DNA from: Synechococcus sp. A15-24
GTDB taxonomy: Bacteria; Cyanobacteriota; Cyanobacteriia; PCC-6307; Cyanobiaceae
NCBI RefSeq assembly: GCF_014280195.1
Contig: NZ_CP047960.1
Span: forward strand, 2,100,001 to 2,132,000
Reading direction: 5' to 3'
Length of the DNA: 32,000 nucleotides
A model generated the notes under the pieces. That model worked only from the letters and a program-made list of their open reading frames with translations, was not told the origin of the DNA and did no database searches. A program made the translations under genes and the position numbers. This document shows, piece by piece, positions 199 to 29,170 of this stretch. Every line of letters starts with the position of its first letter. The first letter of the stretch is position 1.

Positions 199-867
199 TC
201 AGTTCTGCTTGGAGATCTGAGAGAACTCCAGTTCCACCGGGGTCTCCCGACCAAAGATGGACAACAGGGCCTTGAGCTTGTTGCGTTCGCCGGAGACCTC
301 GATCACCTCACCCTGGAAGTCCTTGAACGGACCAGCGGTCACCAGGATCTGATCGCCTTCGGTGAGATCAACCTTGACGACGGTTTTCTTCTCGGCAGCA
401 CGTTTGAAGATCCGGTCCACCTCGGCGCGGCTGAGGGGGCGTGGCTTGATATGGCCCCGAGCCTTACCGGCGGCGCGCCGGTCTTCCGCCCCAACGAAGT
501 TGATCACGTTCGGTGTGCTGCGGACGGCCATCATCGTGTCCTCATCGAGCACCATCCGCACAAGCACATAGCCGGGGAACACCTTCTCCTCGGTGGACTG
601 ACGGGAACCGTCCTTCTTCACCTTGACCGCAGGGGTCTGCGGAATCTCAATCTCGAGGATGCGCTTGCTCACCCCCAAGGTGATCGCCCGCTGCTCCAGG
701 GTCGCCTTCACCTTTTTCTCGCAGCTGGAGGCCACCTGCACGGCGTACCAACGGGCAATTGCCGTGTTGGCGGACGGCGCATCCGAGAGTGTGCCCTCCT
801 CACCCTCATTCGGGGCCGGCAGGTCGAGCACCTCGGCGGGGTCCGTTGTGGTCAGATCGTCGGGCAC
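199..867 (-). CDS. nusG: Transcription termination/antitermination factor NusG
   Basis: This lies within ORF 199..939. It has the NGN-domain start RWYAVQVASSCEKKVKATLEQR and the KOW motif GDQILVTAGPFKDFQGEVIEV. I place the start at the in-frame GTG 867..865, 19 nt after the secE stop. The ORF-track start at 939 would overlap secE by 53 nt. The start remains uncertain. Confidence 0.88.
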   Translation of the reverse strand: MPDDLTTTDPAEVLDLPAPNEGEEGTLSDAPSANTAIARWYAVQVASSCEKKVKATLEQRAITLGVSKRILEIEIPQTPAVKVKKDGSRQSTEEKVFPGYVLVRMVLDEDTMMAVRSTPNVINFVGAEDRRAAGKARGHIKPRPLSRAEVDRIFKRAAEKKTVVKVDLTEGDQILVTAGPFKDFQGEVIEVSGERNKLKALLSIFGRETPVELEFSQISKQN

Positions 868-4373: not shown

Positions 4374-5693
<1,320 letters not shown>

Positions 5694-5708
5694 TCACCAG
5701 GCCTGTCG

Positions 5709-12546: not shown

Positions 12547-13668
12547 GTGAATGCCGTGAGTCAGACCGACCAGAAGCCAACTCTCATCATTGGTGGCGGC
12601 CTGATGGGATTGGCAGTAGCCCACCAGCTGGCCAGGCGCGGAACATCTGTTCGAGTGATCAGCCGCAAGCGCAGTGAGGCGGCCGGTTTTGTAGCGGCTG
12701 GGATGCTCGCTCCCCATGCGGAAGGGCTATCTGGAGCACTGCTGCAACTTGGCCAGGCCAGTCTGGAGCTGATCCCACGTTGGGTGGCCCAGATCGAAGT
12801 GGACAGCGGCCTGAGCTGTGGTCTCAGGGCCTGCGGCATCGTGGTCCCGTTCCGAAGCGTTGATCAACGGGACCAATACCCCACGTCCGGTTATGGAGTG
12901 GCCCTTGACCGCGACGAGCTGGAGCACGAACTACCCGGCATCGGCTCTAGCTGGACCTGCGGTCTGTTGTTCGAGCAAGACGGACAGATCGACAACCGCC
13001 GTCAGCTCATGCGCGCCCTTGAACGTGCCTGCGTCTCTCTAGATGTTCAATTTCTGGAGGGAAGCGATGTCAAAGAGATCCAAAGGGATACGTCTGGATT
13101 TCTGAAGGGCGTCGTGATGGAAAGCGCCGAAGGTGAGAGATGCCAGCTCTCTTGCCATCAAGCAGTGCTGGCCTGCGGCGCCTGGAGTCAGAAGTTGATG
13201 CCTGAATTACCCGTGTTCCCGATCAAAGGGCAGATGCTGTCGCTTCAAGGTCCACGGGAAGCGCTCAAGCGGGTGATCTTTGGCCCAGGCACCTATTTGG
13301 TACCGAGGGAGGATGGACTAGTGGTTGTTGGAGCCACGAGCGAACGAGATGCAGGTTTTCAAGAGGGGCTGACCCCCAATGGCCAGAAGCAGTTACAAGC
13401 TGGCCTTGAGTCGCTGTTGCCAGCAGCAGCCAGCTGGCCGCCAATGGAACGGTGGTGGGGATTCCGGCCCTGCACGCCTGATGAAGCCCCCCTGCTGGGC
13501 GAAAGCTCCATTCCAGGACTTTGGTTGACCTGCGGCCATCACCGCAATGGAGTGTTGCTTGCCGCAATCACAGCCCAGAAAATTGCCGAAGTCCTTTTTA
13601 GTGGCCAGAAAAGCTCAAAACTTCTGCACGATTTCCACTGGGATCGCTTTACCAAGGGGCGCCCATGA
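12547..13668 (+). CDS. thiO: FAD-dependent glycine oxidase (ThiO/DadA-type oxidoreductase)
   Basis: 373 aa with the N-terminal dinucleotide-binding fold LIIGGGLMGLAVAHQLARRG and a late GHHRNGVLLA motif typical of DAO-family/ThiO enzymes. GTG start at 12547 (alternative GTG at 12556). Confidence 0.8.
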   Translation: MNAVSQTDQKPTLIIGGGLMGLAVAHQLARRGTSVRVISRKRSEAAGFVAAGMLAPHAEGLSGALLQLGQASLELIPRWVAQIEVDSGLSCGLRACGIVVPFRSVDQRDQYPTSGYGVALDRDELEHELPGIGSSWTCGLLFEQDGQIDNRRQLMRALERACVSLDVQFLEGSDVKEIQRDTSGFLKGVVMESAEGERCQLSCHQAVLACGAWSQKLMPELPVFPIKGQMLSLQGPREALKRVIFGPGTYLVPREDGLVVVGATSERDAGFQEGLTPNGQKQLQAGLESLLPAAASWPPMERWWGFRPCTPDEAPLLGESSIPGLWLTCGHHRNGVLLAAITAQKIAEVLFSGQKSSKLLHDFHWDRFTKGRP

Positions 13669-14986
13669 GCTCAATGCCGGCCCAGAAGAAAGGGTTGGAC
13701 ACCCCATTACTGACGCGTCTTTGTTGAGACGACGTGAGTTGCGTCAACAGAGGCAGGCCTCCAACATCGAGGAGCTCATCACCGGAAAGCTTGATCAAAT
13801 TTCGTATAAACGCTTGGCGGGTCATCTGCATTGCCTCCGCCTTAGGAACTCCTTGTTCCAGAAACCGATACATTTGCACAAAATAAGCTGATGTCACCAC
13901 ATCATCGACATACCAGAGCGTGCCAATGGCGCTGCGCGCTCCAGCCTGAAGGGCCAAGCCGCTAAAACCCAATTCAGCGTCTGCGTCACCCAAGGCGGTT
14001 CGGCAAGCAGAGAACACAACCAGATCGAATGGAGCTCCCTTCCTCGTCTTTCTCAATGTTGAAAGCTGCTTCATTGACAGAGGCCCTGAGCCTGAATGCA
14101 ACTGGGATGCTTCGGGCCCACCCGGCTTGAATTCAGCATGGGTCGCAATATGCAACAGCCCATATTGAGATTCAGACGCCTTGGTCAGAAGAGTGTCTGG
14201 AGTAAAATCCTTGTTTAGAAACTGATCTTTTTTGTCGTCAACGGCAATACGACTGATCTCCTGCGGAACCAGCGGGAGTGATGCAAGACCTTCGAACTGA
14301 GAGGCACCCAAGGCCAAAATCTTACCCTGGGATTGAGACTTAGCCTCAAAATCAGTCAACGCTAGCGATGGAGTAATCGCAAATGCATAACGATCTCCGA
14401 GGAATTGCTCCCCGTCATGGAGCGCCGCGAATGGTACTGCCTGAAGTCCACGATCAGCAGCAATGAGCAATGTCGTGACCTTCTTGGCTTCAAGGACTGG
14501 CTTCAATTCACCAAAAATGAGGGAGTGAATCTGTCGAGAGGGCGACTCGGGTTTGTCCTCATTCAAAGACTCAAGCCTCGAAAGCTGCATGTACAACTGA
14601 CGCAACTGATCTCGAAAAACACTGGATGAAAGCTCGACGCGAAATCCCTCAACATCCCCACTAGAAGGAATCAATGTTATGTCGAGAAATGCATCAGAAT
14701 TAGCAGAAGACGTCCTGCCTTCCGCCTGAGTGAAACGCAAGTGGATCACCGCAGGATTGTATTTTTGAGGATCAAACCCAGGCAGCACTGACACTGACTG
14801 CGTCGACTCTGGATCAGGATTTGGATTAGCAAGGCCGTAAACAGATGTGAACAGCTCTGCTCCGAGAGCGCAGCATGCAAAGCCAAGGCACCCAATCCGG
14901 ATCAAATCAGATCTCAAAGTCGTGAATCTCCGCGGGTATACCAAACAGCCAGACAACTTTTGCAGGAGTCGGAATTGATCAATCAC
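13649..14986 (-). CDS. CHAT-domain (caspase-fold, clan CD) protease with N-terminal signal/anchor segment
   Basis: 445 aa. CHAT hallmarks are the His in LLHIATHAEF (His283, nt 14140..14138), the Cys in LVVFSACRTA (Cys328, TGC at 14005..14003), and the C-terminal NPFFWAGIELMG. A hydrophobic segment IGCLGFACCALGAELF covers aa 31-46. GTG at 14986..14984 is preceded by a perfect AGGAGG 6 nt upstream and shares 1 nt with the tpsA stop. Confidence 0.85.
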   Translation of the reverse strand: MIDQFRLLQKLSGCLVYPRRFTTLRSDLIRIGCLGFACCALGAELFTSVYGLANPNPDPESTQSVSVLPGFDPQKYNPAVIHLRFTQAEGRTSSANSDAFLDITLIPSSGDVEGFRVELSSSVFRDQLRQLYMQLSRLESLNEDKPESPSRQIHSLIFGELKPVLEAKKVTTLLIAADRGLQAVPFAALHDGEQFLGDRYAFAITPSLALTDFEAKSQSQGKILALGASQFEGLASLPLVPQEISRIAVDDKKDQFLNKDFTPDTLLTKASESQYGLLHIATHAEFKPGGPEASQLHSGSGPLSMKQLSTLRKTRKGAPFDLVVFSACRTALGDADAELGFSGLALQAGARSAIGTLWYVDDVVTSAYFVQMYRFLEQGVPKAEAMQMTRQAFIRNLIKLSGDELLDVGGLPLLTQLTSSQQRRVSNGVSNPFFWAGIELMGAPW

Positions 14987-17900
14987 TATTGACCTCCTGC
15001 GATTTGTTGTTGCAACTGTTGCAGAAAATTACTGATCTGCCCAGCCGATGGCGTACGGCGACCTGAAAGTTCAGGCAAGTTCAACGCACCTACAGCTCGA
15101 TCAGTCGCCGCACTGTCTCCTTCAGAAACGGCTGCCAAAGCCTGTGAGGAATCCACTCGTTTGACGTCTACAGCTGCGGATGGTGCCGATTCCTGGTCTC
15201 CAGATCCTCCCTGGTCACCGTCAGAGGTGCCTTCTCCATCTGCGTCAGATTCTGCCTCTGCTTCTCCTTCTCCTTCTCCTTCTCCTTCTGCTTCTCCTTC
15301 GGCTTCTCCTTCTCCTTCTCCTTCGGCTCCACCCTCTCCCTCCCCTTCAGCATCTGCTTCTGTATCAGCCTCGGCGTCTGCTTCATCGGCGCTGTCGTCG
15401 GTTCCACTTTCCTCAGTTGATGTGTCCTCCGAGGAATCAGTGGCAGCTGAGTCATCCGATGGATCAGCTGAGTCTGTTGTCTCGCCCGAAGCTTCTCCAC
15501 TTTCACCTGCAGCTGAGGTTTCGGATCCGGCTGCTGTATCGGCGCCAGAGGAGGCCTCTGAATTGGAAACATCAGGTGTAGAACTAGCAACTGTTGACTC
15601 TGACGTTGCACTAGCCACACCAACGGCGGAAGTCGCACTCGATGTTGTGCCAGAACCCTCAGAGCTCACTGCAGCGACCTGAAACGAGTCACCCAGAGAA
15701 AGATCCACTGACGTTCCCTCTGCAGAAAGACTGGGCGGAACAAGGGATGCTGCGACTGATTCAACTGTGTCACTCACATTCGACGAATCAGTCGAAGAAC
15801 TTGTTTCGGTCGTTGCGGCCACCACTGAAACCACCTCCGACGTTGCGGCGGTGGAAACAGAAGCATTAGGCGACGGAGTTGCAGCTGACGTTGACGTTTC
15901 AGGAGCTGCAGCAACATCCACGGGGGAAGTGGAAGCCGTGGACACAGTCGCTGCTGTTTCAACCACAGCAATCGCAGCCGTAATGGTTTCGACACTGCTT
16001 TCGGCTACCAAATCAGAAATGACCGCATCAGGCGTTACTTCACGCGGCGGCTCAGGCGTTAGTCCACCCAACAGCTCAGGCGTTAGTTCACGCGGCGGCT
16101 CAGGCGTTAGTTCACCCAACAGCTCAGGCGTTAGTTCACCCAACAGCTCAGGCGTTAGTTCACCCAACAGCTCAGGCGTTAGTTCACCCATCGGCTCAGG
16201 CGTTAGTTCACCCAACAGCTCAGGCGTTAGTTCACCCATCGGCTCAGGCGTTAGTTCACCCAACAGCTCAGGCGTTAGTTCACCCAACGGCTCAGGCGTT
16301 AGTTCACGCGGCGGCTCAGGCGTTAGTTCACGCGGCGGCTCAGGCGTCGGCTCAGGCGTCGGCTCAGGCTCAGGCTCAGGCTCCGGCTCAGGTTCCGGTT
16401 CCGGTTCCGGTTCCGGTTCAGGCTCAGGCTCAGGCTCAGGCTCCGGCTCTGGCTCAGGCTCCGGCTCCGGCTCTGGAGTGACCTCACAAACATTCGACGT
16501 GGCGCCATCAGCACAATTGGCTGACGTCGGTCCGGAGCCCTGGACGGCCAGTTCCCCTTCGTTAACGACGGTTGAACCGGTGTAAGTGTTGTCACCCGTA
16601 AACGTGAGTACACCGGAGCCAACCTTTGTGAAACCACCTTCGCCAGACATCACCCCTGAAAATGTTGTGTCGAGCTCATTGCCAGCGGTTAGCTGAAAAG
16701 TATTTAGAACAATCGATCCACCACCGGCGATGGAACCTACACGATCACTTGATCCCAGCTCATAAACAGAGCCTTCGCCAATCAAAACGTCCGTCTCATC
16801 ACTCAAACTTCCGCTCACAGACAGCAATCCGCCACTCACATTGCTCGCACCCGTGTACGTGTTCGCACCACTAAGCGTCAGCGTCCCGCTGCCGGTCTTC
16901 GTTAATCCACCTGTTCCCGAAATCACACCGCCAAATGTTGTATCCGTTCCCGATCCGCCAGCCGTCAGCTGATTTGCTCCCAAACTGATCGATCCACTCC
17001 CTGTAATCGATCCCACTTCTTCATCAGCACCAACCTCATAAGTTGCACCACTGGCAACAGATATGGCCGTCGCGCTACTTAAGCTACCACTGCTGGTTGT
17101 AGTCAACCTTCCACCGCTAATATTTGTGGCACCTGTGTATATATTTGCACCACTAAGCTTCAGCGTCCCGCTGCCGGTCTTCGTTAATCCACCTGTTCCC
17201 GAAATCACACCGCCAAATGTTGTATCCGTTCCCGATCCGCCAGCCGTCAGCTGATGTGCTCCCAAACTGATCGATCCACTCCCTGCAATCGATCCCACTT
17301 CTTCATCAGCACCAACCTCATAAGTCGCCCCTTCACTCACAGACACCGCGGTTCCATCACTCAAACTTCCGCTCACAGACAGCAATCCGCCACTCACATT
17401 GCTCGCACCCGTGTACGTGTTCGCACCACTAAGCTTCAGCGTCCCGCTGCCGGTCTTCGTTAATCCACCTGTTCCCGAAATCACACCGCCAAATGTTGTA
17501 TCCGTTCCCGATCCGCCAGCCGTCAGCTGATTTGCTCCCAAACTGATCGATCCACTCCCTGCAATCGATCCCACTTCTTCATCAGCACCAACCTCATAAG
17601 TCGCCCCTTCACTCACAGACACCGCGGTTCCATCACTCAAACTTCCGCTCACAGACAGCAATCCGCCACTCACATTGCTCGCACCCGTGTACGTGTTCGC
17701 ACCACTAAGCGTCAGCGTCCCGCTGCCGGTCTTCGTTAATCCACCTGTTCCCGAAATCACACCGCCAAATGTTGTATCCGTTCCCGATCCGCCAGCCGTC
17801 AGCTGATGTGCTCCCAAACTGATCGATCCACTCCCTGCAATCGATCCCACTTCTTCATCAGCACCAACCTCATAAGTCGCACCACTGGCAACAGATAGTG

Positions 17901-20277
17901 CCGTAGAGCTGCCAAGGCTTCCACTGCCACTTGTCTTCAACGTCCCGCCACTGATACTTGTAGATCCGGTGTAGGTGTGCACTTGATCAAAAGTCAGATC
18001 CCCTGCCCCAGACTTCACAAAAGATCCTTCTCCACTGATGATCTTCGAGTAAATGGCAGTGTCAGAGGCAGATACCAAATCAATTTCATAAGTTGCACCA
18101 GCAGCAACAGCTACAGCTGAAGACATGGCTGTGCCTACAGACTCCAACGTGCCTGCATTAACAGTGGTATCGCCTGTAAAACTTTTAACTCCAGTCAGGG
18201 AAAGCTTGCCAGTACCATTCTTCCTGAGTATGCCAGTGCCTGAAATTTGTCCAGAATATGTCGTGTTACTGGCCTGGAGAGCCTCTAGGCTGCTAGTCGT
18301 TGATATATTTCCTGAACCACTTAAGCCTCCACTTGAGTTTGCTCTAATATCAATAGTATTCGCGCTTAATTCTGCGTTGACTGCTACTCCACCATCTGAA
18401 TGAAGATTCAGAGCATTGCCGCCTGTAATTGCTTGGTCGACAACAATCGAATCTCCCGAATTAAGAGTTAAGGTATTAGAGCTTGGACTCAAAGTGATAG
18501 ACTGTTGAACTTTAATATCCCTAGACGCAGTCAACGAGACATTCGCGCTGCTTAAAGCCGATTCAATAGTTGAGGGTGTAATAACTGCATCTGTACTTGA
18601 ACCAGTAGCGTTTACTGTAGATACATCCAATCCGCTGGTGTTTGTTCGAGAGAAATACACTCCGGTCCCATCATCCGTTTCGGTTCCGCCTGGAGGTGTA
18701 TAACTCACTGTGATCTGATCGCGGCCACCGTTTTCCCCGAAATAAACTACTAAAGGGTAATACGAGTCTTGTGAAAGGCTAAATGTTGTCGTCGCCGATC
18801 TGTCTCGCGCACCATGAGTCCCACCATTGCTGACAAGTGCGTTAGATGTTGTGATGGTTGATTCGAATGAATCAACAGATTCTGTACTATCGGATCCTAT
18901 CCAAAGGTATGAAGCGTCATCACTTCTTGTTTTGAACGTGAATTGACCACTGGCTGGAGCCTTAAAGTAACCGACAAACCGAACGCTATAGGTATTATCA
19001 AAGTTGGCCCCAGGCGTAATGGTATTAATACTTGTAAACGGTGAAGCAAATCGTGAATCAGATTCAGTGGCAGCCGTGTCGAAGAATGATAAATCATCGG
19101 CAAAATATCCATCGTATTTTGTTCCAGTAAGGCCCGACGAAAACTCATATATATCAATTATAATATCCCTTGGATCTAAGAGCCACAAACCATTAATCCC
19201 TTTCTCAGCTATAGCGTCAATCTGAATACCATAGACGTCGAGCATAAAGCCCGATGTCTCTATGCGACCGCCATCACCTTGATCCCTTCCGCCTCTTGCC
19301 CTAAGCTCACCTGAGATCAGGGTTTGCGATTCGGAGTCAATGATATTACTCCACACCACAATTTCACCGCCATCGCCAACATCGCCAGCAGATGCATCCA
19401 GCACTGCGCCAGCTTCAATAACAGCGCGTTTGGCCTGCCGCACTGTTTCATCACTGTTCTGCCAACTGCCTCCCACTTCAATCGTTCCACCGCCACTGGC
19501 TTGCTCCGCCTTCAAGTGCGTGCCTTCGCCAACAACAACCTCGTCTCCGGTCAACGTCAGCCGTGATGTACTGGCGTCCCCATCACCAACATGGATCGTG
19601 CTTTCACGAACCTCCACCACACCTCCAGGTGCATCGGCGAACAGTTCACGGTCCATGCGGATGTCAATCCCATCCATCTGAATCACAGGAACCGAGCCAT
19701 CAGCTGCCAGGGCATCCAGTATTTCGATCCCACCGAACCCAAGCGAGCCAGGCAGCGGATCTCCCTTGAGCGCCGTTAGTTCAGAAGCCCGGGTCTTGAA
19801 CACATCAAACGTTCCCTCACCGAAACGCAACGATCGCGAGGTGCTCAGATTCAGCTTGGGAACATTGACGAATCCTGCACCTGCGCCGAGATGAATACCG
19901 CCTGGTGACAGCCAGAACAGATTTGCCTTTGAGGAAAGCTCAATCGATTTGTTGATAAAGGAACCCAGCGGTGAGGTCACACCCACCACCAGATTGCGCT
20001 TGCCACCGGTATCAATCTCAACCCCCTTGATCTTGCCGCGCGTGTCGAAATCCTTGAATCGCAGAAATTTGTTGCGTCCCGCCTTATTGCCACCGCTGAT
20101 TTTGCAGATCCCTTCGCTGCAGCTGCCGCCCTTCTTTCCGTTCACCTTGGTCGACAGACCCTTGCCACGACCAGCGCGAATCTCAGCCAGCGCCGATGTT
20201 TGATGCACGACGCCACTCATCCCCAGCAAGACACCGAGGGTGAAGCGAATCACCTTCTCAGGACCTGTATGTGCCAT
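14986..20277 (-). CDS. Two-partner-secretion (type Vb) exoprotein, TpsA / filamentous-haemagglutinin-like, ~1763 aa
   Basis: The ORF runs 14986..20352 from a TTG. The first ATG (20277) gives a Sec signal peptide, [34 protein letters not shown]-domain motifs are [18 protein letters not shown] (compare GxNLFHSFxxF) and [14 protein letters not shown] (compare NPNGI). These are followed by a PA14-like domain, autotransporter-type beta-strand repeats, (PE)19, 13 octapeptide repeats, and an S/T-rich and acidic tail. Confidence 0.9.
14993..14998 (-). promoter_or_regulatory. Shine-Dalgarno AGGAGG for the CHAT gene, embedded in the last codons of tpsA
   Basis: The minus strand reads ...ATC GCA GGA GGT CAA TAG TG ATT.... 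That is AGGAGG, a 6-nt spacer (TCAATA), then GTG (14986..14984), which shares its G with the tpsA TAG stop. Confidence 0.6.
15187..16026 (-). repeat. Low-complexity Ser/Thr/Ala/Val-rich segment merging into an acidic Asp/Glu/Gly/Ala tract ([13 protein letters not shown]...)
   Basis: This covers aa 1443-1722 of the TpsA ORF. It has no hydrophobic core pattern. The acidic (G/A)E repeats lie at roughly 15229-15390. Confidence 0.85.
16027..16338 (-). repeat. 13 tandem 24-nt repeats encoding the octapeptide [PPR/LLG/PMG/PLG]ELTPE
   Basis: The plus-strand unit is caggcgttagttcac(cc/gc)(aac/atc/ggc)(a/g)gct. The minus-strand protein reads PPRELTPE x2, [48 protein letters not shown] x3, [24 protein letters not shown]. 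Confidence 0.92.
16339..16476 (-). repeat. (Pro-Glu)19 dipeptide microsatellite followed by PTPEPTPE
   Basis: On the plus strand this is ggctc(a/c)gg(c/t)tc(a/c)gg... hexamers. It translates on the minus strand as PEPEPE... (aa 1293-1338). I verified the frame at 16474-16482 (VTP). Confidence 0.92.
16534..18255 (-). repeat. Array of ~7 autotransporter-associated beta-strand repeat (PATR-type) units in TpsA
   Basis: The unit recurs as [32 protein letters not shown] plus a spacer with ATYEVG...[18 protein letters not shown]...TTFGGVISG. It spans aa ~700-1273. The outer copies are degenerate. Confidence 0.8.
16726..17880 (-). repeat. Four near-identical tandem coding repeats, period 276 nt (92 aa), with one 282-nt unit (94 aa)
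   Basis: The marker string ctaagc(g/t)tcagcgtcccgctgccggtcttcgttaatccacc recurs at 16871, 17153, 17429 and 17705. The aligned units differ by only a few bases over most of their length. Confidence 0.9.
18649..19140 (-). other. PA14/GLEYA-like (carbohydrate-binding type) domain inside TpsA
   Basis: This covers aa ~405-568: YDGYFADD...[32 protein letters not shown]...[26 protein letters not shown]. It follows the PA14 pattern (G-Y-F...tG.YtF...sDDg..L.i.g...Yp..v.y.e.gG.a...l.w). Confidence 0.7.
19420..20184 (-). other. TPS (haemagglutination-activity) secretion domain of TpsA
   Basis: This covers aa ~57-310 in ORF numbering. It contains [16 protein letters not shown] and [22 protein letters not shown], followed by beta-helix-like Gly/Asp-rich turns. 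The boundaries are approximate. Confidence 0.75.
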
Positions 20278-20342
20278 AGCTACTGCACTGCAACGGGGGT
20301 GGGCATGAGCAGCCCTATGGGGCGCTGAAAGGAAGGTCACGC

Positions 20343-20370
20343 AAATGCGCAACCCCCCACAGGCGCATTT
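20343..20370. promoter_or_regulatory. Perfect 8-bp inverted repeat AAATGCGC-N12-GCGCATTT in the tpsA/tpsB divergent region
   Basis: The arms are at 20343-20350 and 20363-20370, with the loop aaccccccacag. It lies 66-93 nt upstream of the tpsA ATG. It could be an operator or a 5'-UTR hairpin. Function unknown. Confidence 0.3.
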
Positions 20371-20494
20371 TGGGGCGTCTGTACATTTTTCTCCTTAGAT
20401 AGACTAGAGAGGAGTGTGGTTAACGGTCTGCTGATCAACGCAATGGCCGTCGGGTTTTTCGCGCTGGATCCCTGATGGATTCAGCGCGTTTTAC

Positions 20495-20509
20495 TTTTTT
20501 CGGAAAAAA
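20495..20509. promoter_or_regulatory. AT palindrome TTTTTTC-G-GAAAAAA upstream of tpsB
   Basis: The 7-bp arms surround a single central base, 30-44 nt upstream of GTG 20539. It is the most AT-rich element in the intergenic region. It could be a protein-binding site or a curved-DNA element. Function unknown. Confidence 0.25.
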
Positions 20510-20538
20510 TAGTCGATTGACTTATCGCCTTCATCGCC

Positions 20539-22215: not shown

Positions 22216-22216
22216 A

Positions 22217-22675
22217 TCAACCCTCGACGCGCCAGCTCTGATCAGATGGGACCCAGTCATTGAGTTCGGTCGCACCAAACCAGAGACCAATTTCAAATTC
22301 AGCGGTTTCCGGCGCATCCGATCCATGGATCACATTTCGCCCGATGTTGACGGCAAGATCTCCACGGATGGTGCCTGGCTCAGCCTCGAGGGGTTTGGTC
22401 GCACCGATCAGCTTGCGGGCACTAGCGATCACCCCATCGCCTTCCCAAACCATCGCCACCACAGGGCCAGAGGTGATGAAGTCCACCAAGCCGGCAAAGA
22501 ACGGTCGCTCTTTGTGAACTCCGTAGTGCTGCTCAGCCAGCTCGCGGGTGGGGGTTAGCTGCTTCAGACCCACGAGCTTGAAGCCCTTGTGCTCGAAGCG
22601 ACCGAGAATTTCACCCACCAATCCACGCTGGACGCCGTCGGGCTTGATGGCGATGAAGGTACGTTCGGCGGCCAT
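22217..22675 (-). CDS. ndk: Nucleoside diphosphate kinase
   Basis: The ORF track extends to 22768, but NDK begins at ATG 22675..22673: [23 protein letters not shown]. The active-site motif NVIHGSDA is present. 152 aa. Its stop is 1 nt from the tpsB stop (convergent). Confidence 0.95.
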
Positions 22676-22681
22676 AAAAAA

Positions 22682-22737
22682 CATCTGTGTGCCGCGCCAT
22701 CGTCCGTGGCCGCCCCTCCGCTTGGCAAGCACAGATG
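22682..22737. promoter_or_regulatory. Inverted repeat CATCTGTG...CACAGATG in the ndk/speA divergent intergenic region
   Basis: The arms are at 22682-22689 and 22730-22737, flanked by GCC/GGC with a bulge. The left arm begins 7 nt upstream of the ndk ATG and the right arm ends 46 nt upstream of the speA GTG. Confidence 0.25.
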
Positions 22738-22782
22738 CAGTGACTGCTCTTATCTTGCAGTGATTCACTCCTGAGCAGCGTT

Positions 22783-24720
22783 GTGCTGAGCGGAACCGAG
22801 CAGGCCTGGTCCGTTGCGCAAAGCGCTGACCTTTACGGGCTCGAACGCTGGGGAGATCCCTATTTTTCCATCAACGCCAAAGGCCATGTGGTGGTGCAGC
22901 CCCGCGGCGATCGGGGTGGATCGCTTGATCTGGTGGAGTTGCTCCAAGGACTGAAGGCGCGCGACCTCAGCACCCCAATCCTGATCCGTTTCGACGACAT
23001 CCTCGAAGACCGGCTGGAACGGTTGCATGCGGCCTTCGACCGTGCCATCGCCCACTACGCCTACGACGCCAGCTACCAGGGAGTGTTTCCGATCAAATGC
23101 AACCAACAGCGGCATGTGGTGGAACATTTGGTGGACCGTGGCAACCGCTGGAATTTCGGGCTGGAGGCGGGGAGCAAGGCGGAGCTGTTGATCGCGCTTT
23201 CCCTCACCAAGAATCCTGATGCCCTGCTGATCTGCAACGGTTACAAGGACCGCCGCTACATCGAAACGGCGATCCTGGCCAGGCGGCTTGGACACCAACC
23301 CATGGTGGTGATCGAACAGGCCGATGAAGTGGAGCGCATCATCCAGGCCAGCGACGCCCTGGGTGCATCCCCATTCCTCGGAATCCGCGCCAAGTTATCC
23401 AGCCGCAGCACAGGGCGCTGGGGTAGCTCCGTCGGCGAGCGGGCCAAATTCGGCCTGGATCTCACCGAAATGCTGCAGACCGTGCACGCCCTGGAACGCG
23501 CCGGATTGCTCAAGGATCTGCGGCTGCTCCACTTCCACATCGGCAGCCAAATCAACGACATTGCCGTGCTCAAAGACGCTCTCCAGGAAGCCGGCCAGAT
23601 CTATGTGGAGCTAACCCGGCTGGGGGCACCGATGGGACATCTCGACGTGGGCGGCGGGCTTGGCATTGATTACGACGGCAGCCACACGGCAACGGCAGCC
23701 TCGACCAACTACACGCTGCAGAACTACGCCAATGACGTGGTGGCCACAGTTCGGGAATGCTGTGAACCCCACAACGTTCCTGTTCCTGTCCTAGTGAGCG
23801 AAAGCGGTCGGGCCATCGCCAGCCACTTCTCCGTTCTCGTGTTCGACGTGATGGGTTGTGGTCGAACCCCCGACGACGAACCGCCCAGCCAAGACAACGA
23901 ACCCTTGCCCGTGCGCAATCTGCGCGTCACGCTGACCCACATCCGCAGCGTGGAGAAGGAAACAGACCCCGAGTTGCGGCTGCTCCAGGAAGCGTGGAAC
24001 GATGCGATCAAATTCAGGGATGACGCGCTGGCTGCCTTCCGGCTCGGGTACATCCGCCTGGAGGAACGGGCCATGGCTGAGCAGCTCACCTGGAGCTGCG
24101 CCCGCGCCATCAACGAACGTTTGCCAACCAACACCCCCATCCATGACGACCTGAAGGGACTACGGCGTGCCCTGGCCTGCACGTATTACGTGAACCTCTC
24201 CGTGTTCCGCTCAGCGCCTGACACATGGGCCATCGACCAGCTGTTCCCACTGATGCCGATTCATCGCCTGGATCAACAACCAACCGAACTGGGCGACTTT
24301 GCAGATCTCACCTGTGACTCCGATGGAAAGCTTGCGCGATTCATCCACTCAGGACAAAGCAAATCCCTGCTGGAACTCCACCCGCTTGTAGATGGTGAGC
24401 CCTATTGGATCGGCATGTTCCTCGGCGGTGCCTATCAGGAAGTGATGGGCAACCTGCACAACCTGTTCGGCAGCACCAGCGCCGTGCATGTGAGGCTCAA
24501 CCCCAAAGGCAGTGGCTACCTGCTGGATCATGTGGTGAAGGGAGACACCAACGCTGACGTTCTCGAGGAAATGCAACACAACCCAGACCTGATGCTGGAG
24601 CGGCTGCGCCAGGCTTCAGAGGCTGCCATTCAACGGGGAACGTTGAAGATTGAGGACGCCAGGCTGTTAATGAGTCATCTTAAAGCCAGCCTGGATCAGA
24701 CCACCTACCTGCAGGGATGA
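22783..24720 (+). CDS. speA: Biosynthetic arginine decarboxylase
   Basis: 645 aa. It has [23 protein letters not shown], the PLP-lysine context [10 protein letters not shown], and [11 protein letters not shown] start at 22783. Confidence 0.95.
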
Positions 24721-26609
24721 AACGCTTCCGGGAGTTGCTGCAACGCATCGGGCCATACACCGCAGCTGTGTTGGTGCTTGTACTGCTGCGCAGCACAGGA
24801 CTATCCCAAACCATCGATCTGCTGGTCTATGACCTGATCACGACGCAGCGACCTGCACCCTCGGGCAGCGACACACCCATCACACTGATCGGTATTGAAG
24901 AAAGTGACATCCAGCGCTTTGGCTGGCCGATTGACGACGGACTGTTCTGCGAAGCCTTTGACAGGCTTAATGCAAGCGGTGTCGACGTCATCGGTTTTGA
25001 CATCTACCGGGACAAAGGCGTCGGACCAGATCAACAGTGCCTGCGCGATCGCTTTCAAAACGAACCAACGCTGGTGTCGATCTTCAACGTTGCTTCTGGC
25101 ATTGGACCAGTCCCTGGGACGCCGGCGGAACGGCAGTCGTACAACGATCTAAGCCTGGATGCCGACGGAATTCTTCGGCGTGATCTCGTCCATGTCACTG
25201 GACAAGATGAAGCCACGGTGTCCTTCGCTCTACGGGTGATGGAGATCGCGACCACTGACCGCAGTCTGCGACAGGCAATGGACGATGGCACTCACAAGGA
25301 TGCATGGCTGAGCGCCAATGGAGGGGGGTATTACAACGAAGTGGATGCAGGCCTGGGGCTGCAACGGCTGCTTCGCTTTCGGGATCCCTGGAGCTATCCG
25401 CTTTATTCCCTTGCTCAGGTTCTGGACGGCGAGATACCAGAGGAGGCGATTCGCGACAAGATCGTTTTAATCGGCAGTACTGCTCCCTCTCTGAGAGACC
25501 TTTTCAACGTGCCTCACACCCGCTTCCGCAGAAGCGATGAGGTGTTTCAAGTGTCAGGTGTCGAGATCCATGCCAACCGTGTTGCAACACTGCTCGAACA
25601 CCACGTCGGGAGCATCCAGATCGGCTGGATCATGCCTGGCTGGGGCAACCAGATGCTGCTGGTCCTTTGCATCGGCCTGGGCGTACTCCTCGGGGAAGCG
25701 GTGCCCAAACTTCGTCGCAGCGTCCTCCTGGTGCTGACACTTGGGGTCGGTCTCACCGGCGGTCTTGGCTGGCTTCTCTTGCAACAGCATGTCTGGGTGG
25801 GAATGGCGATGCCACTCACGGGCCTACTCAGCATGGGCGGGGCCGGCTGGCTGCGTCGAGGGGCCATGAGCCAGCAACATTCACAACAAATCAAGCAACT
25901 GCTTGGACAAACAACGTCCCCTGCCGTGGCGGAGCAGCTGTGGGATCAGCGTGATGAATTGCTCAGCAACGGACGCTTTGATGGGCGGCAGCTTCCAATC
26001 ACCGTGCTGTTCACAGATACGGCCAACTTCACCAGCGTCTCTGAGGGGCTCAGTCCCCGCGAACTGATGGACTGGCTTAATCGAGGCATGGAAGTATGCG
26101 TTCCCGCCGTAACCCGACGCGGGGGCATGGTGAATAAGTTCACCGGTGACGGAATGCTTGCCGTGTTTGGTGTTCCAATCGAACAGGACGTCAGGGCTGA
26201 AGCCAAGGCCGCTATCGAGGCAGCGCAAGAAATCAAGGTCGGACTAGAGCAGTTGAATCAACAACTTCAAATCGATGGCGAGCCAGCCATGCGGATCAGA
26301 ATGGGCATTCACTCCGGTGATGCGCTCGTGGGCTCAATGGGGAGCGCCGAACGCATTGAATATGCTGTCATCGGCGACACCGTGAATTGCGCCTCACGGT
26401 TGGAAAGTCTGGAAAAGACGCGCCACACAGGAGTTCTGCGGGTGTTGATGTCCAACAACACCCTAGAACTCCTAGATCCGGACTTTCGCAAGCAATTAGA
26501 CCTGCATGGCTGGGGGCCGATGCACGTCAAGGGTCGAGACGAACCGCTTGATGTTTATGAACTCAAGATGGACAACGCACTGGAAGATTCTGAGGCCACT
26601 CAGCAGTGA
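24717..26609 (+). CDS. CHASE2 extracytoplasmic sensor fused to a class III adenylate/guanylate cyclase
   Basis: 630 aa. It has an N-terminal TM (YTAAVLVLVLL), a ~280-aa periplasmic CHASE2-like region (ITLIGIEESDIQRFGWP...VIGFDIYRD...IVLIGSTAPSLRD...GVEIHAN), three TM segments (aa ~305-380), and then a cyclase domain. The cyclase has metal Asp residues in VLFTDTANFT and FTGDGMLAVFG, and Asn/Arg in GDTVNCASRLES. The ATG at 24717 overlaps the speA TGA (ATGA). Confidence 0.88.
   Translation: MKRFRELLQRIGPYTAAVLVLVLLRSTGLSQTIDLLVYDLITTQRPAPSGSDTPITLIGIEESDIQRFGWPIDDGLFCEAFDRLNASGVDVIGFDIYRDKGVGPDQQCLRDRFQNEPTLVSIFNVASGIGPVPGTPAERQSYNDLSLDADGILRRDLVHVTGQDEATVSFALRVMEIATTDRSLRQAMDDGTHKDAWLSANGGGYYNEVDAGLGLQRLLRFRDPWSYPLYSLAQVLDGEIPEEAIRDKIVLIGSTAPSLRDLFNVPHTRFRRSDEVFQVSGVEIHANRVATLLEHHVGSIQIGWIMPGWGNQMLLVLCIGLGVLLGEAVPKLRRSVLLVLTLGVGLTGGLGWLLLQQHVWVGMAMPLTGLLSMGGAGWLRRGAMSQQHSQQIKQLLGQTTSPAVAEQLWDQRDELLSNGRFDGRQLPITVLFTDTANFTSVSEGLSPRELMDWLNRGMEVCVPAVTRRGGMVNKFTGDGMLAVFGVPIEQDVRAEAKAAIEAAQEIKVGLEQLNQQLQIDGEPAMRIRMGIHSGDALVGSMGSAERIEYAVIGDTVNCASRLESLEKTRHTGVLRVLMSNNTLELLDPDFRKQLDLHGWGPMHVKGRDEPLDVYELKMDNALEDSEATQQ
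24789..25616 (+). other. CHASE2 periplasmic sensor domain
   Basis: This covers aa ~25-300, between the N-terminal TM and the triple-TM block. The boundaries are approximate. Confidence 0.7.
25989..26561 (+). other. Class III nucleotide cyclase catalytic domain
   Basis: This covers aa ~425-615. It contains Asp434 and Asp478 (metal), Lys474 (purine-specifying position), and Asn557 and Arg561 (transition state). The second specificity position appears to be Ala550 (EYAVIGD) by pattern alignment. Confidence 0.8.
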
Positions 26610-27183
26610 CGATATCTGCGAGTCCGAACTGACCCAGGGTTGCCTTTGCCGGGACGGTGGCACCACAGCTGTTTCTGAGCTTCGTCAGAGCGGCCTGAAC
26701 AGGAGCATCACTGGCATCTGGCTCTGGAACCAGGAGGCTGACGGCAGGGGGTGATGCTGTTTCAACAAAAGCCAGAGGGTCATCACTCGCCGAACCGTCC
26801 GCCGAGGCGCAATCAAACTCTGATTCCCAAACGGTGGGGGCGCTGATGCTGGAACCACTGATCAAAATCAGTGCAGCTGGCGCGGCCGGGAGTGTCTGGG
26901 TGATCGACGCTCCACCAGATTCTGGTTTAAAGCTGATGTTGAGACTCACAGGGTTGGCGGTAGGCCCCTGAACCAACCCCAGCCCCGATGTCGCTCCAGG
27001 AGCAAACACACTGCTGTCGGGAACCAAATGAGCCAGGATCCGGGCACTGCATTCCCCTCTGGTACCACCACCGACCCTCCGGCCAGGGAAACTACTCCGC
27101 AGATTGGCCTGAGCCAGCGCTGTCATCGGCATGAAGCCATGCAAGGCGCTTAAACCTGCGCCCATTAGGAGGAAAGCCTTCAT
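26563..27183 (-). CDS. Secreted DUF928-like protein
   Basis: The ORF track runs 26563..27285. ATG 27183 gives a signal peptide, MKAFLLMGAGLSALHGFMPMTALA/QA. Just after it comes PGRRVGGGTRGEC, which I recall as the hallmark motif of the cyanobacterial DUF928 family (from memory, not searched). Four Cys are present. The alternative ATG at 27285 directly abuts the stop of the upstream channel gene (TGAATG). Confidence 0.65.
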   Translation of the reverse strand: MKAFLLMGAGLSALHGFMPMTALAQANLRSSFPGRRVGGGTRGECSARILAHLVPDSSVFAPGATSGLGLVQGPTANPVSLNISFKPESGGASITQTLPAAPAALILISGSSISAPTVWESEFDCASADGSASDDPLAFVETASPPAVSLLVPEPDASDAPVQAALTKLRNSCGATVPAKATLGQFGLADIVTAEWPQNLPVRCPS

Positions 27184-27285
27184 GGCGGTGGAATGCATGT
27201 CCATCAAGGGAACTCCAACCCAGCCTGACAACGAATAAGACTCCTGTCCAAACAAACCAGGTATGGGGAGGCCTTGAGAGGCCAT

Positions 27286-28779
27286 TCAGGAGTTCATCAA
27301 CCTGCTGAACGTCTGAGTCATGCGTTCGACCAGACCCAGCTCGAAGGTTTTCTTCTCCTCGAGCGTAAAAGTCTTCAAACCAGCTTCCCGTGTTGCCATG
27401 ACCTTGGCAAATTCTGCCATCGCAGTCTGATTGTTGAGAAAGACGGCTTCAATCTGACTCTGACTGATTTCCTGGAGCAGCACATGACCAGTCGCTTGGA
27501 TCCAAGCCGTACGAGGAGCATCAGTGAGCGCAGAGATTTCTCCAAAAATGGATCCAGACTTAAGCTGTGCAACTTCCATCATTGAAGTCTCATCAGACGG
27601 ATCCGGGATGAGTACAGAGCAGATCCCTTCCATGATCACAAACATCGAGCCACCAATCTCTCCCTTGTTCACCACCATCTCACCAGGGCCAAAAGCCAAT
27701 ATGTTGTCATTACAGACAATGCCTTGAATCTCATCATCCGTTAAGGACGAAAAGAGCTCGATCTTTCTTAGTAAATTAAAACATTTTTCCTGCGCTTCGC
27801 TACTCCGCCGCTCACGCAATTGACGACGAGTTTGCTCGGTACGTAGATCGACAATCGAATGGGGCAGCGAATATCCATGACGCTCAATAGCATACCAAAC
27901 ACTTGAAAAAACCTGGGTTCGGATCCTATTACGAACAGCAAAGTCTGGCACAAAAAATTTCAGCGCATAATTAATTGAGTCGTTACCAATTGATCTGATC
28001 ACAACTGAGCTTCGATCCTTGTTAACGATTTCAACATTCGAGTCCAACACACTCTTCAAAACTCGCATCGCCTGACCAGGTGGCATATTCAGAGGAACGC
28101 CCACTTCGACCTCCAACCGATACTCGGCACGCGAGGGGCGTGAATAATTAATCGTTTTACTATGATCAATGAGCGAGTTAGGAACAACAATATAGCGATC
28201 ATCAGTGTCGTCATAAAGGTAAGTGCTATTCCAAGAAATATTATCGACACGGCCCATCTGGCCAGCAATTTCAACCCAATCACCAACCACATATTGACGC
28301 TCTACCTGAACAGCGAGAGCTGCTGAAATGTTGCTGATCTGCGTGGCAGAGCCTGGACCGACAATGAAGGCAAGACCACCCAGAACAGCCGCAGAACCCA
28401 CCGTTGTCAGCAGACCCTGGCTGTTAAGCTCAGCCGCCACAACAACGAAAGCTGCTGCCACAAGTGCCAAATCCTTGAGGATCCGCGGCGGGGCCACCCC
28501 TCGAGAACTCAAACGGATGACCAAAGCCCAAATCACATCGAGGGCCAGCTCCACGAAGGCGACATAGAGGCCGGTTTTGGCAACGACAGCGATCCAGTCG
28601 ACAATGTCTCCCTCGAGCCCAGCACCCTGCAGCCCATTACTCAGAAGAGCCGCCGCGAGTGATACGCGGAAAAACACCATGCTTGGGATGAGGCGACTCA
28701 ATCGACTTGACCCCAACTGACGAATTCTCCCAAGCAGGAATGTCAGCAGAAAAGGGATAATTAGCAGCAAACTTCCCAT
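27286..28779 (-). CDS. MscS-family mechanosensitive channel with C-terminal cyclic-nucleotide-binding domain (bCNG-type)
   Basis: 497 aa. It has N-terminal TM helices, an MscS pore/beta domain (GGLAFIVGPGSATQISNISAALAVQVERQYVVGDWVEIAGQMGRVDNISWNSTYL) and a cNMP-binding domain with the phosphate-binding cassette FGEISALTDAPRTAWIQA (Glu414, Arg423). Confidence 0.88.
   Translation of the reverse strand: MGSLLLIIPFLLTFLLGRIRQLGSSRLSRLIPSMVFFRVSLAAALLSNGLQGAGLEGDIVDWIAVVAKTGLYVAFVELALDVIWALVIRLSSRGVAPPRILKDLALVAAAFVVVAAELNSQGLLTTVGSAAVLGGLAFIVGPGSATQISNISAALAVQVERQYVVGDWVEIAGQMGRVDNISWNSTYLYDDTDDRYIVVPNSLIDHSKTINYSRPSRAEYRLEVEVGVPLNMPPGQAMRVLKSVLDSNVEIVNKDRSSVVIRSIGNDSINYALKFFVPDFAVRNRIRTQVFSSVWYAIERHGYSLPHSIVDLRTEQTRRQLRERRSSEAQEKCFNLLRKIELFSSLTDDEIQGIVCNDNILAFGPGEMVVNKGEIGGSMFVIMEGICSVLIPDPSDETSMMEVAQLKSGSIFGEISALTDAPRTAWIQATGHVLLQEISQSQIEAVFLNNQTAMAEFAKVMATREAGLKTFTLEEKKTFELGLVERMTQTFSRLMNS
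27415..27777 (-). other. Cyclic-nucleotide-binding domain of the MscS-type channel
   Basis: This covers aa ~335-455: LLRKIELFSSLTDDEIQGIV...GEMVVNKGEIGGSMFVIMEG...GSIFGEISALTDAPRTAWIQATGHVLLQEI. Confidence 0.85.
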
Positions 28780-28810
28780 CGCTCTTTATCGGTGACAGGT
28801 CAGAACGCAA

Positions 28811-29170
28811 TCATTTGATGATCATCACGCAAAGCACCCACAACAACTTGCAACCCAAGTGAAGAGCCTGGTCAACGATGAGCCTGTAACCAAGTCGACA
28901 TTTTCCGAAGTCGATCAGAAAATGACAGGCCATCTCTGCCAACCCTAGGACTGGAATGCCAGTCAAGATTGCGACAAAAAAGCCATGGGTTCCCGCATGA
29001 GCTGAGAGCCACCACCGCCAACTCAGAGTCACGTCCTTGCCAGGACATTTCTCAACCGCCATTTTGTCACCCTGCAGAGGGTAATCAGCGACAAAGTGAC
29101 CAAGCAGTAAAAGGATGAGGAGGTCCAACGGTTGAACTGCTGTATTTAGAAAAAGAGTCATGGCTGCCAT
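28811..29170 (-). CDS. Small polytopic membrane protein, DUF3307-like
   Basis: 119 aa (or 116 aa from ATG 29161). GHFVADYPLQ resembles the HxxxDxxLQ motif I associate with DUF3307. Further His residues sit in hydrophobic helices (SAHAGTHGFF, ACHFLIDF). It is co-directional with alaS (51 nt upstream) and the channel gene (31 nt downstream). Confidence 0.6.
   Translation of the reverse strand: MAAMTLFLNTAVQPLDLLILLLLGHFVADYPLQGDKMAVEKCPGKDVTLSWRWWLSAHAGTHGFFVAILTGIPVLGLAEMACHFLIDFGKCRLGYRLIVDQALHLGCKLLWVLCVMIIK

Follow-up and report, generated by a model that had tools for sequence, protein, structure and literature searches.

The question raised by a 32,000-nt stretch of DNA from Synechococcus sp. 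A15-24 (NZ_CP047960.1, positions 2,100,001-2,132,000; hereafter the window, to which all coordinates refer unless another locus is named) is whether seven accessory genes grouped around the ndk-speA pair belong together and, if they do, what they could serve. Block A encodes a predicted protease of the CHAT (caspase-fold) family, a giant TpsA-like surface protein and TpsB, the outer-membrane transporter of a two-partner secretion (TPS) pair. Block B encodes a CHASE2 receptor with a class III nucleotide cyclase domain, a secreted DUF928-related protein, a bCNG-type MscS channel with a domain that binds cyclic nucleoside monophosphates (cNMPs), and a small DUF3307 membrane protein. A preliminary description of this DNA had placed the seven genes in two blocks on either side of ndk-speA, about 2.5 kb apart, and this layout is borne out by the open reading frames (ORFs), all of which were found at the expected coordinates. 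The region is read here, with a probability of roughly 0.55, as the form taken in picocyanobacteria by an uncharacterised but widespread sensory module that spans the envelope. CHASE2 and DUF928 form its invariant core, TPS and CHAT are a frequent, dispensable arm, and the outputs are interchangeable. The idea that all seven genes make up one system thus stands in part: the CHASE2-DUF928 pair is obligate and the TPS and CHAT genes are frequent companions, but the latter can be lost and the channel and DUF3307 genes are more loosely attached.

The linkage was followed among picocyanobacteria in 80 speA-anchored loci from GTDB species genomes, taken with 10-kb flanks, in which the components were mapped by tblastn and local hidden Markov models (HMMs); several of these loci end at contig edges. 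The DUF928-like gene is present in 24 of the 80 loci, and each of the 24 also carries the orthologous CHASE2 cyclase. TpsB, TpsA or CHAT occurs in 18/24 loci with the DUF928-like gene and in 5/56 loci without it (75% versus 9%), so that the presence of block A and that of block B are strongly correlated, as the joint system would demand. More telling than these counts is the gene arrangement. In a Vulcanococcus genome (L013) the CHAT, TpsA, TpsB, cyclase, DUF928-like and DUF3307 genes are contiguous, with no ndk-speA inside, and in L046 the order speA, cyclase, DUF928-like, CHAT, TpsA, TpsB is likewise unbroken. Five Cyanobium-type loci (L063, L065, L066, L073 and L077) run through bCNG, cyclase, DUF928-like, DUF3307 and CHAT genes and onwards as one cluster, and L034 and L042 are contiguous too. 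The complete genome of RS9902, from another marine clade, has the same two-block split around ndk-speA as the window. The split is therefore a feature of the marine lineage, the set being contiguous elsewhere, and many genomes are empty at this site (gatB-thiO-ndk-speA-alaS).

The same families were found together outside this lineage. When CHAT and the cyclase were used as tblastn queries against annotated plasmids, both matched the same cyanobacterial plasmids at neighbouring coordinates, and these loci were read from the depositors' annotation and Pfam scans. Plasmid p1 of Planktothrix agardhii carries genes for CHASE2, DUF928, TPR-CHAT, ShlB and a TPS-domain protein; plasmids of Nostoc flagelliforme and Pseudanabaena have all five, differently ordered, and four of the five recur on a plasmid of Nostoc C052 (with no ShlB gene in its annotation). 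Gloeothece PCC 7424 has the series CHAT-DUF928-CHASE2. CHASE2 adjoins DUF928 in 5/5 plasmid loci. In a second phylum, plasmid pMSHV of Sphingobium herbicidovorans (L089 2885-16696) encodes a Crp/Fnr protein, a CHAT protein of 1028 amino acids (aa), a CHASE2-cyclase, a secreted 239-aa protein, ShlB and a giant TPS-like protein, a set that is kept at 85-89% identity in 11 other Sphingobium plasmids. The secreted protein of this set has no DUF928 motif, and the TPS-like N-terminus of the giant protein is undetected by Pfam. The best plasmid match of CHAT, in Nostoc NIES-3756, is a lone CHAT gene with no module around it, and the cyclase loci of Ensifer and Azospirillum are without the module.

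With canonical DUF928 as the anchor, 18 loci were retrieved from metagenomes; 15 of them have CHASE2 within 0-2 kb, and the remaining 3 are contigs that stop within 1-2 kb. In 10/18 the surrounding 10 kb include CHAT, TpsB or TPS genes. Among the DUF928-adjacent receptors tested with Pfam (from L091-L107 and the plasmid loci), 19/19 contain CHASE2, and their cytoplasmic parts vary widely, with GGDEF-EAL in 7, a cyclase in 3, a histidine kinase in 2, a trypsin-like domain in 2 and a Ser/Thr kinase, AAA_35, PNP_UDP_1 or CHAT in 1 each. A constant CHASE2 with many outputs is the pattern of a shared input module, and since diverse outputs sit on a constant extracytoplasmic set, outside-in sensing is favoured. 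Some of these outputs (trypsin-like peptidase, PNP_UDP_1 phosphorylase, AAA_35 and CHAT) are effector-like. Across plasmids, metagenome loci and picocyanobacterial genomes, DUF928, CHASE2, CHAT and haemagglutinin/ShlB genes are thus recurrent cyanobacterial neighbours, as the preliminary description had stated, at a frequency far above background, and their linkage is not due to chance.

Of the core pair, the DUF928 member required the most careful assignment. The window gene most probably spans 26563-27207 on the minus strand (ORF 26563-27285) and encodes a secreted protein of 214 aa. Pfam gave no match to DUF928 (PF06051) at E<=10 for this protein or for two Cyanobium-clade homologues, an NCBIfam scan was equally empty, a precomputed Pfam domain was found in 0/120 of the homologues listed for it, and tblastn of its ORF against the plasmid collection returned no match. 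The family is a small one, with 661 clusters when grouped at 90% identity; a search of 1.84 billion sequences gives 164 representatives at 50% identity, and in that search the family profile also reaches four DUF928 proteins confirmed by Pfam (E 1e-6 to 3e-5). By hhalign the DUF928-like family aligns with true DUF928 at 98.5% probability (E 3e-15) over the N-terminal 81 columns only, which run from the signal peptide through the FPGRRVGGGTRGxC motif into the first strands, and a local DUF928 HMM finds the protein at E 2e-6. As the match is remote and Pfam is silent, the protein is filed as DUF928-related, with N-terminal kinship, and not as a member of DUF928. The HMM assignments of the preliminary description were accordingly upheld for CHASE2 and CHAT (Pfam, each E 4e-49), and the DUF928 assignment was reduced to this relationship.

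The predicted layout of the DUF928-like protein comprises a signal peptide, the FPGRRVGGGTRGEC motif, an FN3-like beta-sandwich and a small alpha/beta subdomain, with four invariant cysteines. The motif (window 27079-27120, residues 32-45 of the 206-aa form) lies just past the signal peptide, is invariant in 28 sequences and is the most conserved stretch of the family. In an AlphaFold 2 model with an overall pLDDT of 70.8, residues 1-43, the motif included, have a pLDDT below 50, which would fit a disordered docking or cleavage peptide. A Foldseek search of the PDB with this model returned generic FN3-like sandwiches, none of them at E<=0.001. In the literature DUF928 appears in a Nostoc punctiforme cluster of WD40, CHASE2 and DUF928 genes (PMC5587647).

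The other core gene (24717-26609, plus strand) encodes a 630-aa CHASE2-class III nucleotide cyclase (Pfam CHASE2 E 4e-49, Guanylate_cyc E 9e-21). Hydrophobic segments and Pfam domains together give a layout of one transmembrane segment, a periplasmic CHASE2 domain, three further transmembrane segments and the cyclase domain. The closest solved structure is Synechocystis Cya2 (2W01, E 1.6e-26), and the metal-binding and transition-state residues (FTD, GDG, VNCASR) align with those of the solved cyclases Cya2, CyaB and CyaC. At the specificity position the window cyclase has a Lys (VNKFTGDG) where Cya2 has Glu488 (IDEFMGDG). Because the E488K variant of Cya2 is an adenylate cyclase (PMC5995499), the product is predicted to be cyclic AMP (cAMP); the second specificity position is Ala, neither Asp nor Thr, which leaves some doubt about this prediction.

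The two remaining products of block B are candidates for the output. The MscS channel with its cNMP-binding domain (27286-28779, minus strand; Pfam MS_channel_2nd, MS_channel_3rd and cNMP_binding) has an intact phosphate-binding cassette (FGEISAL...PRTA), and the 119-aa DUF3307 membrane protein (28811-29170, minus strand; Pfam 35.4 bits, cut-off 23) is encoded first in the same minus-strand tandem. Genes of the bCNG type, which fall into two lineages with 22-37% and 44-72% identity to the window channel, stand beside CHASE2 cyclases in 26/29 bCNG loci, and MscS-cNMP genes are accompanied by DUF3307 in 26 loci and stand alone in 3. The channel, together with DUF3307, is the likely local target of cAMP and would alter ion or osmolyte flux. 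According to a recent review, the physiological role of bCNG channels and the part that nucleotides play in their gating are not known (PMC13591265).

Block A would supply the dispensable arm. Its CHAT protein (13649-14986, minus strand; 445 aa) matches PF12770 at 168 bits against a cut-off of 24 and begins with a hydrophobic signal or anchor, and such an N-terminal sequence is present on all CHAT partners, including those of cyanobacterial plasmids. The catalytic His (HIATHAEF; H.ATH) and Cys (FSACRTALG; (S/T)AC) are invariant in 10 aligned homologues from picocyanobacteria, plasmids and Sphingobium, so that an exported protease with an intact dyad is predicted. A second, divergent CHAT gene (28-30% identity) lies in the opposite orientation between tpsB and ndk in L006 (375-2395), L010 (4424-6970) and L011 (5827-8499); it adjoins a second DUF928-like gene in L006 and a CHASE2-cyclase paralogue in L010 and L011, these being paralogues of individual components of the module.

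The giant protein is encoded by an ORF of 1788 aa (14986-20352, minus strand; likely start near 20277) in which Pfam finds seven PATR repeats, PA14 and GLEYA. From the N-terminus it consists of a divergent TPS domain, a beta-helix, PA14/GLEYA, the seven PATR repeats, PE and ELTPELLG repeats, an acidic Ser/Thr-rich tail and a 65-aa C-terminal tail; the last 65 residues are 55% identical to the RS9902 homologue, and the tail before them is not conserved. The description of this protein as a giant secreted TpsA is supported by a predicted signal peptide and by profile-profile comparison, but its TPS domain stays under the curated cut-offs (Pfam 28.3 bits, cut-off 33.5, E 2e-6; TIGR01901 22 bits, cut-off 29.1), with NCBIfam scores of 24.8 and 17.2 bits against TIGR01901 for homologues. 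When seven picocyanobacterial TpsA N-termini were aligned by hhalign with four canonical cyanobacterial TPS domains, one of which had been scanned with Pfam (5.7e-55), a probability of 96.8% (E 2.4e-10) was obtained over 223 columns, with both TPS signature motifs in register (the NLFHSF-like one as GG..G.N.FHRF, and the NPNGI-like one). On this basis the protein is accepted as a divergent TpsA whose TPS domain is visible by profile-profile comparison only.

The central region of TpsA is variable, and TpsB shows 57% identity against about 90% for ndk. Tandem DNA repeats within tpsA lie at 15231-17880; those of 276 bp (x3.9, 90% identity) correspond to near-identical 92-aa PATR units, and the others measure 24 bp (x13-15, ELTPELLG-type octapeptides) and 6-12 bp (PE and GE runs). 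Such repeats suggest that the surface protein has expanded recently and varies in length. In RS9902 (L090 16842-19584) TpsA is divided into two abutting ORFs of 550 and 359 aa that share sequence at their ends (..VWD / VWD..), perhaps because of a frameshift. TpsA and CHAT are read as translationally coupled, base 14986 being common to the TpsA stop and the CHAT start in the window; the two genes also abut or overlap in L013. In WH7803 (L069 15146-21796, minus strand; CT971583.1) a single ORF of 2216 aa joins a TPS-like N-terminus to a complete CHAT domain (residues 1920-2213), with toast-rack (DUF4097) repeats and an acidic Ser-rich tail.

TpsB (20539-22215, plus strand; 558 aa) was recognised by Pfam as ShlB (32.3 bits, cut-off 22.7) and POTRA_2 (24.1 bits, cut-off 24); its orthologues score higher and adjoin TpsA or CHAT in other loci. 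The start of the orthologues, (V/M)LLLAQLVAPPxQPGPVRLP, is strongly conserved (window 20521-20600; L008, L011, L034, L046, L069 and L090), with in-frame stops a few codons 5' of the tpsB start in most of the eight genomes checked. The tpsA and tpsB genes are divergent and 186 bp apart. Their intergenic region (20353-20538) contains a hairpin at 20460-20498 (plus strand) with a 12-bp stem and 8 G-C pairs, followed by the T run TTTTACTTTT, about 40 nt 5' of the tpsB start. It may act as an attenuator or a regulatory element; the promoter and terminator scan from which it comes was at chance level overall.

From these parts a route across the envelope can be proposed. TpsB would export TpsA, which would be displayed on the cell surface. 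For CHAT two substrates are proposed, the conserved C-terminal tail of TpsA and the FPGRRVGGGTRGxC peptide at the N-terminus of the DUF928-like protein; it would act on one or both of them, either at the pore or within the periplasm. CHASE2, on the periplasmic side, would read the state of the DUF928-like protein, which would be its co-sensor or ligand. The cAMP made by the cyclase would then gate the neighbouring bCNG channel, which, with DUF3307, would change the flux of ions or osmolytes. Which partner cleaves or binds which, the direction of signalling, the stimulus and the gating of the channel by cAMP are what we infer, and the scheme is compatible with everything seen. It might be extended to a general receptor for surface surveillance, in which the TPS filament acts as a tripwire for contact, phage, grazers or envelope damage, proteolysis by CHAT turns the DUF928 protein (through its FPGRRVGGGTRGEC peptide) into the CHASE2 ligand, and the outputs range from second messengers to cell-death-type effectors, with a cAMP pulse opening bCNG in marine Synechococcus; in this full form the idea is speculative and unlikely.

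Several observations weigh against the sensory module. The DUF928 relationship is confined to the 81 N-terminal columns. The preliminary placing of all products in the envelope agrees with the export signals predicted on TpsA, CHAT and the DUF928-like protein, with a caveat for TpsB, which has a short conserved LLLAQLVAPP N-terminus and no classical signal peptide, an odd absence for an outer-membrane barrel. The association of TPS/CHAT with the DUF928-like gene has a naive Fisher p of about 8e-9, a value that ignores kinship among the genomes. In the closest relative (L001, speA 89% identical) block A has been deleted and block B is intact; a remnant with the last ~70 CHAT codons lies between thiO and ndk, beside a phosphofructokinase fragment (437-697, minus strand; 1210-1869, plus strand). 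Conversely, the 10 kb surveyed in WH7803, L038 and L053 contain TPS/CHAT genes but neither a cyclase nor a DUF928-like gene, and 8/18 of the DUF928 metagenome loci are without CHAT or TPS genes, L097 with its full 10-kb flanks among them. The channel and DUF3307 genes also occur without the DUF928-like gene or TPS genes (L017-19, L024, L048 and L070), in some cases with no cyclase in view, and therefore look like a looser, lineage-level output outside the conserved module. Finally, the thiO-ndk-speA-alaS interval is a variable hot spot with other cargo in many genomes, so that co-location in picocyanobacteria is partly to be expected.

Some of these observations speak for two or three independent units that merely share a hot spot: a TPS adhesin with a CHAT protease that matures or releases it, a CHASE2-cyclase and DUF928-like co-sensor for an unrelated cue, and a bCNG-DUF3307 pair, with no flow of information between the blocks. 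The loss of block A from L001, the TPS/CHAT genes without block B in WH7803, L038 and L053, and the 8/18 metagenome loci with DUF928 and CHASE2 alone are what this explanation would lead one to expect; it also accommodates the other cargo and lower G+C of the thiO..ndk and speA..alaS slots and the dedicated maturation proteases known for TpsA proteins, such as SphB1 for FHA. What it leaves unexplained is that the five families stay linked in varied orders, on plasmids and in two phyla, in settings to which the ndk-speA hot spot does not contribute, and that picocyanobacterial TPS/CHAT genes occur at 75% versus 9%; it is regarded as doubtful, with a modest chance of being right. The opposite direction of flow has also to be weighed, in which a CHASE2 receptor and its DUF928-like adaptor would sequester or release CHAT in an inside-out manner resembling Lap/CdrAB, CHAT would cleave TpsA at its periplasmic tail so that the filament is shed or kept, and the cytoplasmic domains would report or set the state. 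There is a precedent in the TpsA adhesin CdrA, which is freed by the periplasmic Cys protease LapG under the control of the inner-membrane protein LapD, and the conserved TpsA tail adjoining the CHAT gene, the TpsA-CHAT fusion of WH7803 and the intact dyad of an exported CHAT would all suit it. Against this, the cytoplasmic modules are enzymes of the output type (cyclase, GGDEF-EAL, kinases) and not ligand-binding receivers, and the DUF928-CHASE2 core exists without CHAT or TPS in many loci, which makes inside-out control distinctly unlikely.

A defensive role was considered as well. In a Pycsar-like system directed at phages or predators, an attack on the envelope would be sensed, a cyclic nucleotide made and the membrane permeabilised by the cNMP-gated channel. 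PADLOC matches the cyclase to PycC and the cNMP domain of the channel to Pycsar effectors at the level of domains, some DUF928-linked CHASE2 receptors bear effector-like outputs (trypsin-like, PNP_UDP_1, AAA_35, CHAT), a metacaspase-CHASE2 fusion is reported in the literature, and the locus is a variable stretch of low G+C with a fast-evolving surface protein (TpsB 57% against ndk ~90% identity). The PADLOC matches, however, amount to generic similarity of class III cyclases and cNMP domains, and the region is for this reason not filed as a known defence system. Pycsar cyclases, moreover, are cytosolic and make pyrimidine cNMPs, in contrast to the membrane receptor of the window with its adenine-type Lys; the commonest outputs elsewhere are ordinary signalling domains, and no PADLOC model matches the DUF928-like protein, TpsB or DUF3307, all of which renders such a defence system very improbable. 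The presence of CHAT as the C-terminal domain of TpsA in WH7803 and the variable central region of TpsA might finally recall contact-dependent inhibition or another polymorphic-toxin TPS system, with CHAT as the delivered toxin and a neighbour as immunity factor. This proposal was rejected as scarcely credible: in most genomes CHAT is encoded apart from TpsA and has a signal peptide of its own, Pfam detects neither toxin domains nor pre-toxin motifs, no gene for a small cytoplasmic protein of the immunity type follows downstream, a toxin/immunity pair is not seen, and the obligate partner of DUF928 is CHASE2 and not CHAT. The sensory module with a CHASE2-DUF928 core thus remains the preferred reading.

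The setting of the genes bears on how accidental their arrangement may be. The window, with about 63% G+C, carries genes usual for marine picocyanobacteria (clpB, eno, argJ, gatB, thiO, alaS); gatB and thiO form the left flank of the seven genes and alaS the right, and G+C, about 0.63 in the flanks, sinks to 0.45-0.59 over the interval 13-29 kb. Between the blocks lie two housekeeping genes that were not counted as components, ndk (likely gene 22217-22675, ORF 22217-22768, minus strand; Pfam NDK E 3e-56), which also belongs to the empty arrangement of many genomes, and speA (22783-24720, plus strand), an arginine decarboxylase gene with three Pfam arginine decarboxylase domains, 89% identical to that of a marine cyanobacterial metagenome-assembled genome and 72-84% identical to those of Synechococcus genomes. 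The speA stop shares bases with the cyclase start (ATGA at 24717-24720), and the two also overlap or abut in L001, L002, L007, L009, L014 and L046, so that the cyclase is probably co-transcribed and translationally coupled with speA. In many picocyanobacteria, genes for cNMP signalling stand on both sides of ndk-speA. The view of ndk-speA as a neutral spacer is thus disfavoured, and a purely accidental arrangement is argued against.

Packing is tight elsewhere, too. The tpsB and ndk genes converge with a gap of 1 nt, the cyclase and DUF928-like genes converge with overlapping 3' ends, and the DUF3307, channel and DUF928-like genes follow one another on the minus strand. No Crp/Fnr-type gene is found among the ORFs of 13.6-29.2 kb, in which the only cNMP-binding domain is that of the channel, and Rfam and tRNA scans were empty. 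Other genes occupy the same site in related genomes: a GAF and HD-GYP (HD_5) protein is encoded in L013 (11957-13846, minus strand) between speA and the CHAT-TpsA-TpsB-cyclase cluster, and the RS9902 island (L090) also holds genes for a cNMP_binding and MGS-domain protein and a phosphofructokinase (8498-9391, 4468-5835).

A second type of module occupies the thiO..ndk and speA..alaS slots of Cyanobium-type genomes, where a CHASE2-cyclase paralogue is paired with a FecR-like secreted protein, often with SIMPL/DUF541, bCNG and DUF3307 genes. This pairing stands in 26/29 loci, and the module type recurs in L017, L019, L030, L043, L051, L057, L060, L063, L076 and others, and also in L090 (5930-8472) and L110 (7155-10634). 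At the cyaD1 locus of S. meliloti the order is Clr, cyaD1 and then a FecR family gene for a small secreted partner. From this shared pairing, DUF928 and FecR-like proteins look like alternative periplasmic partners of CHASE2, and the FecR-type module of picocyanobacteria is nearer to the S. meliloti pathway than the DUF928-type module is.

That pathway is the closest described parallel. The CHASE2 cyclases of S. meliloti perceive a protein signal only with the help of NsrA, a protein of the outer membrane (PMC7529298, PMC13001267), a precedent for the dependence of such cyclases on an outer-membrane protein in sensing. The pathway of NsrA, CyaK, CyaD1, CyaD2 and Clr combines an inner-membrane CHASE2-class III cyclase, as in the window, with a necessary outer-membrane beta-barrel and an output of cAMP, for both of which the window set has candidates; it differs in that its periplasmic partner is of the FecR type and not DUF928, that no CHAT or TpsA is known in it, and that cAMP is read by the Crp-like Clr, in place of which the window offers a channel as candidate and the Sphingobium set an adjacent Crp/Fnr gene. 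Synechocystis Cya2 (sll0646), the best solved relative, shares the architecture of CHASE2, transmembrane segments and cyclase (PMC5995499), but with its Glu488 it makes cyclic GMP, whereas the window protein has the Lys of the E488K variant. The bCNG channels described so far, mostly cyanobacterial, have the same domain architecture as the window channel, which differs in standing beside a predicted CHASE2 adenylate cyclase and in tandem with a DUF928-like gene; no upstream cyclase has been assigned to bCNG (PMC13591265).

Other likenesses lie in the logic of the arrangement. In FhaB/FhaC with SphB1 and in CdrA/CdrB with LapG/LapD, a TpsB pore exports a beta-helical TpsA on which a separate exported protease acts, and in Cdr/Lap this protease is governed by a signalling receptor that sits in the inner membrane and has a periplasmic domain. 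The window protease is a caspase-fold CHAT and not a subtilisin or LapG, its receptor is CHASE2 and not LapD, an obligate DUF928 protein is added and the TPS domain is highly divergent; as no LapG-type protease or LapD-type c-di-GMP receptor is present in the window, the likeness to Lap/CdrAB is one of logic only. FecA-FecR-FecI similarly links an outer-membrane part, a periplasmic relay, an inner-membrane transducer and a cytoplasmic output, but the window has neither a TonB-dependent transducer nor an anti-sigma/sigma pair, and the relay proteins are unrelated. The module is hence built from known families and represents a known kind of process, trans-envelope signalling; it is the combination that appears undescribed. 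Neither a description of the gene set nor a paper that combines CHASE2 with CHAT-domain or TPS terms was found in the open-access literature (subscription journals may hold one), which agrees with the preliminary claim that the set is uncharacterised.

Marine picocyanobacteria are globally abundant phototrophs, in which variable loci of low G+C with fast-evolving giant surface proteins have been tied to interactions with phages and grazers. The module described here sits in just such a region, with just such a protein. Its conserved linkage provides testable partners, namely DUF928 for CHASE2, the TPS filament and CHAT as candidate input, and the CHASE2 adenylate cyclase as candidate source of the nucleotide for bCNG. 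If the reading as a surface-surveillance receptor were true, a single pathway would account for DUF928, for the ligand of CHASE2 and for the role of bCNG.

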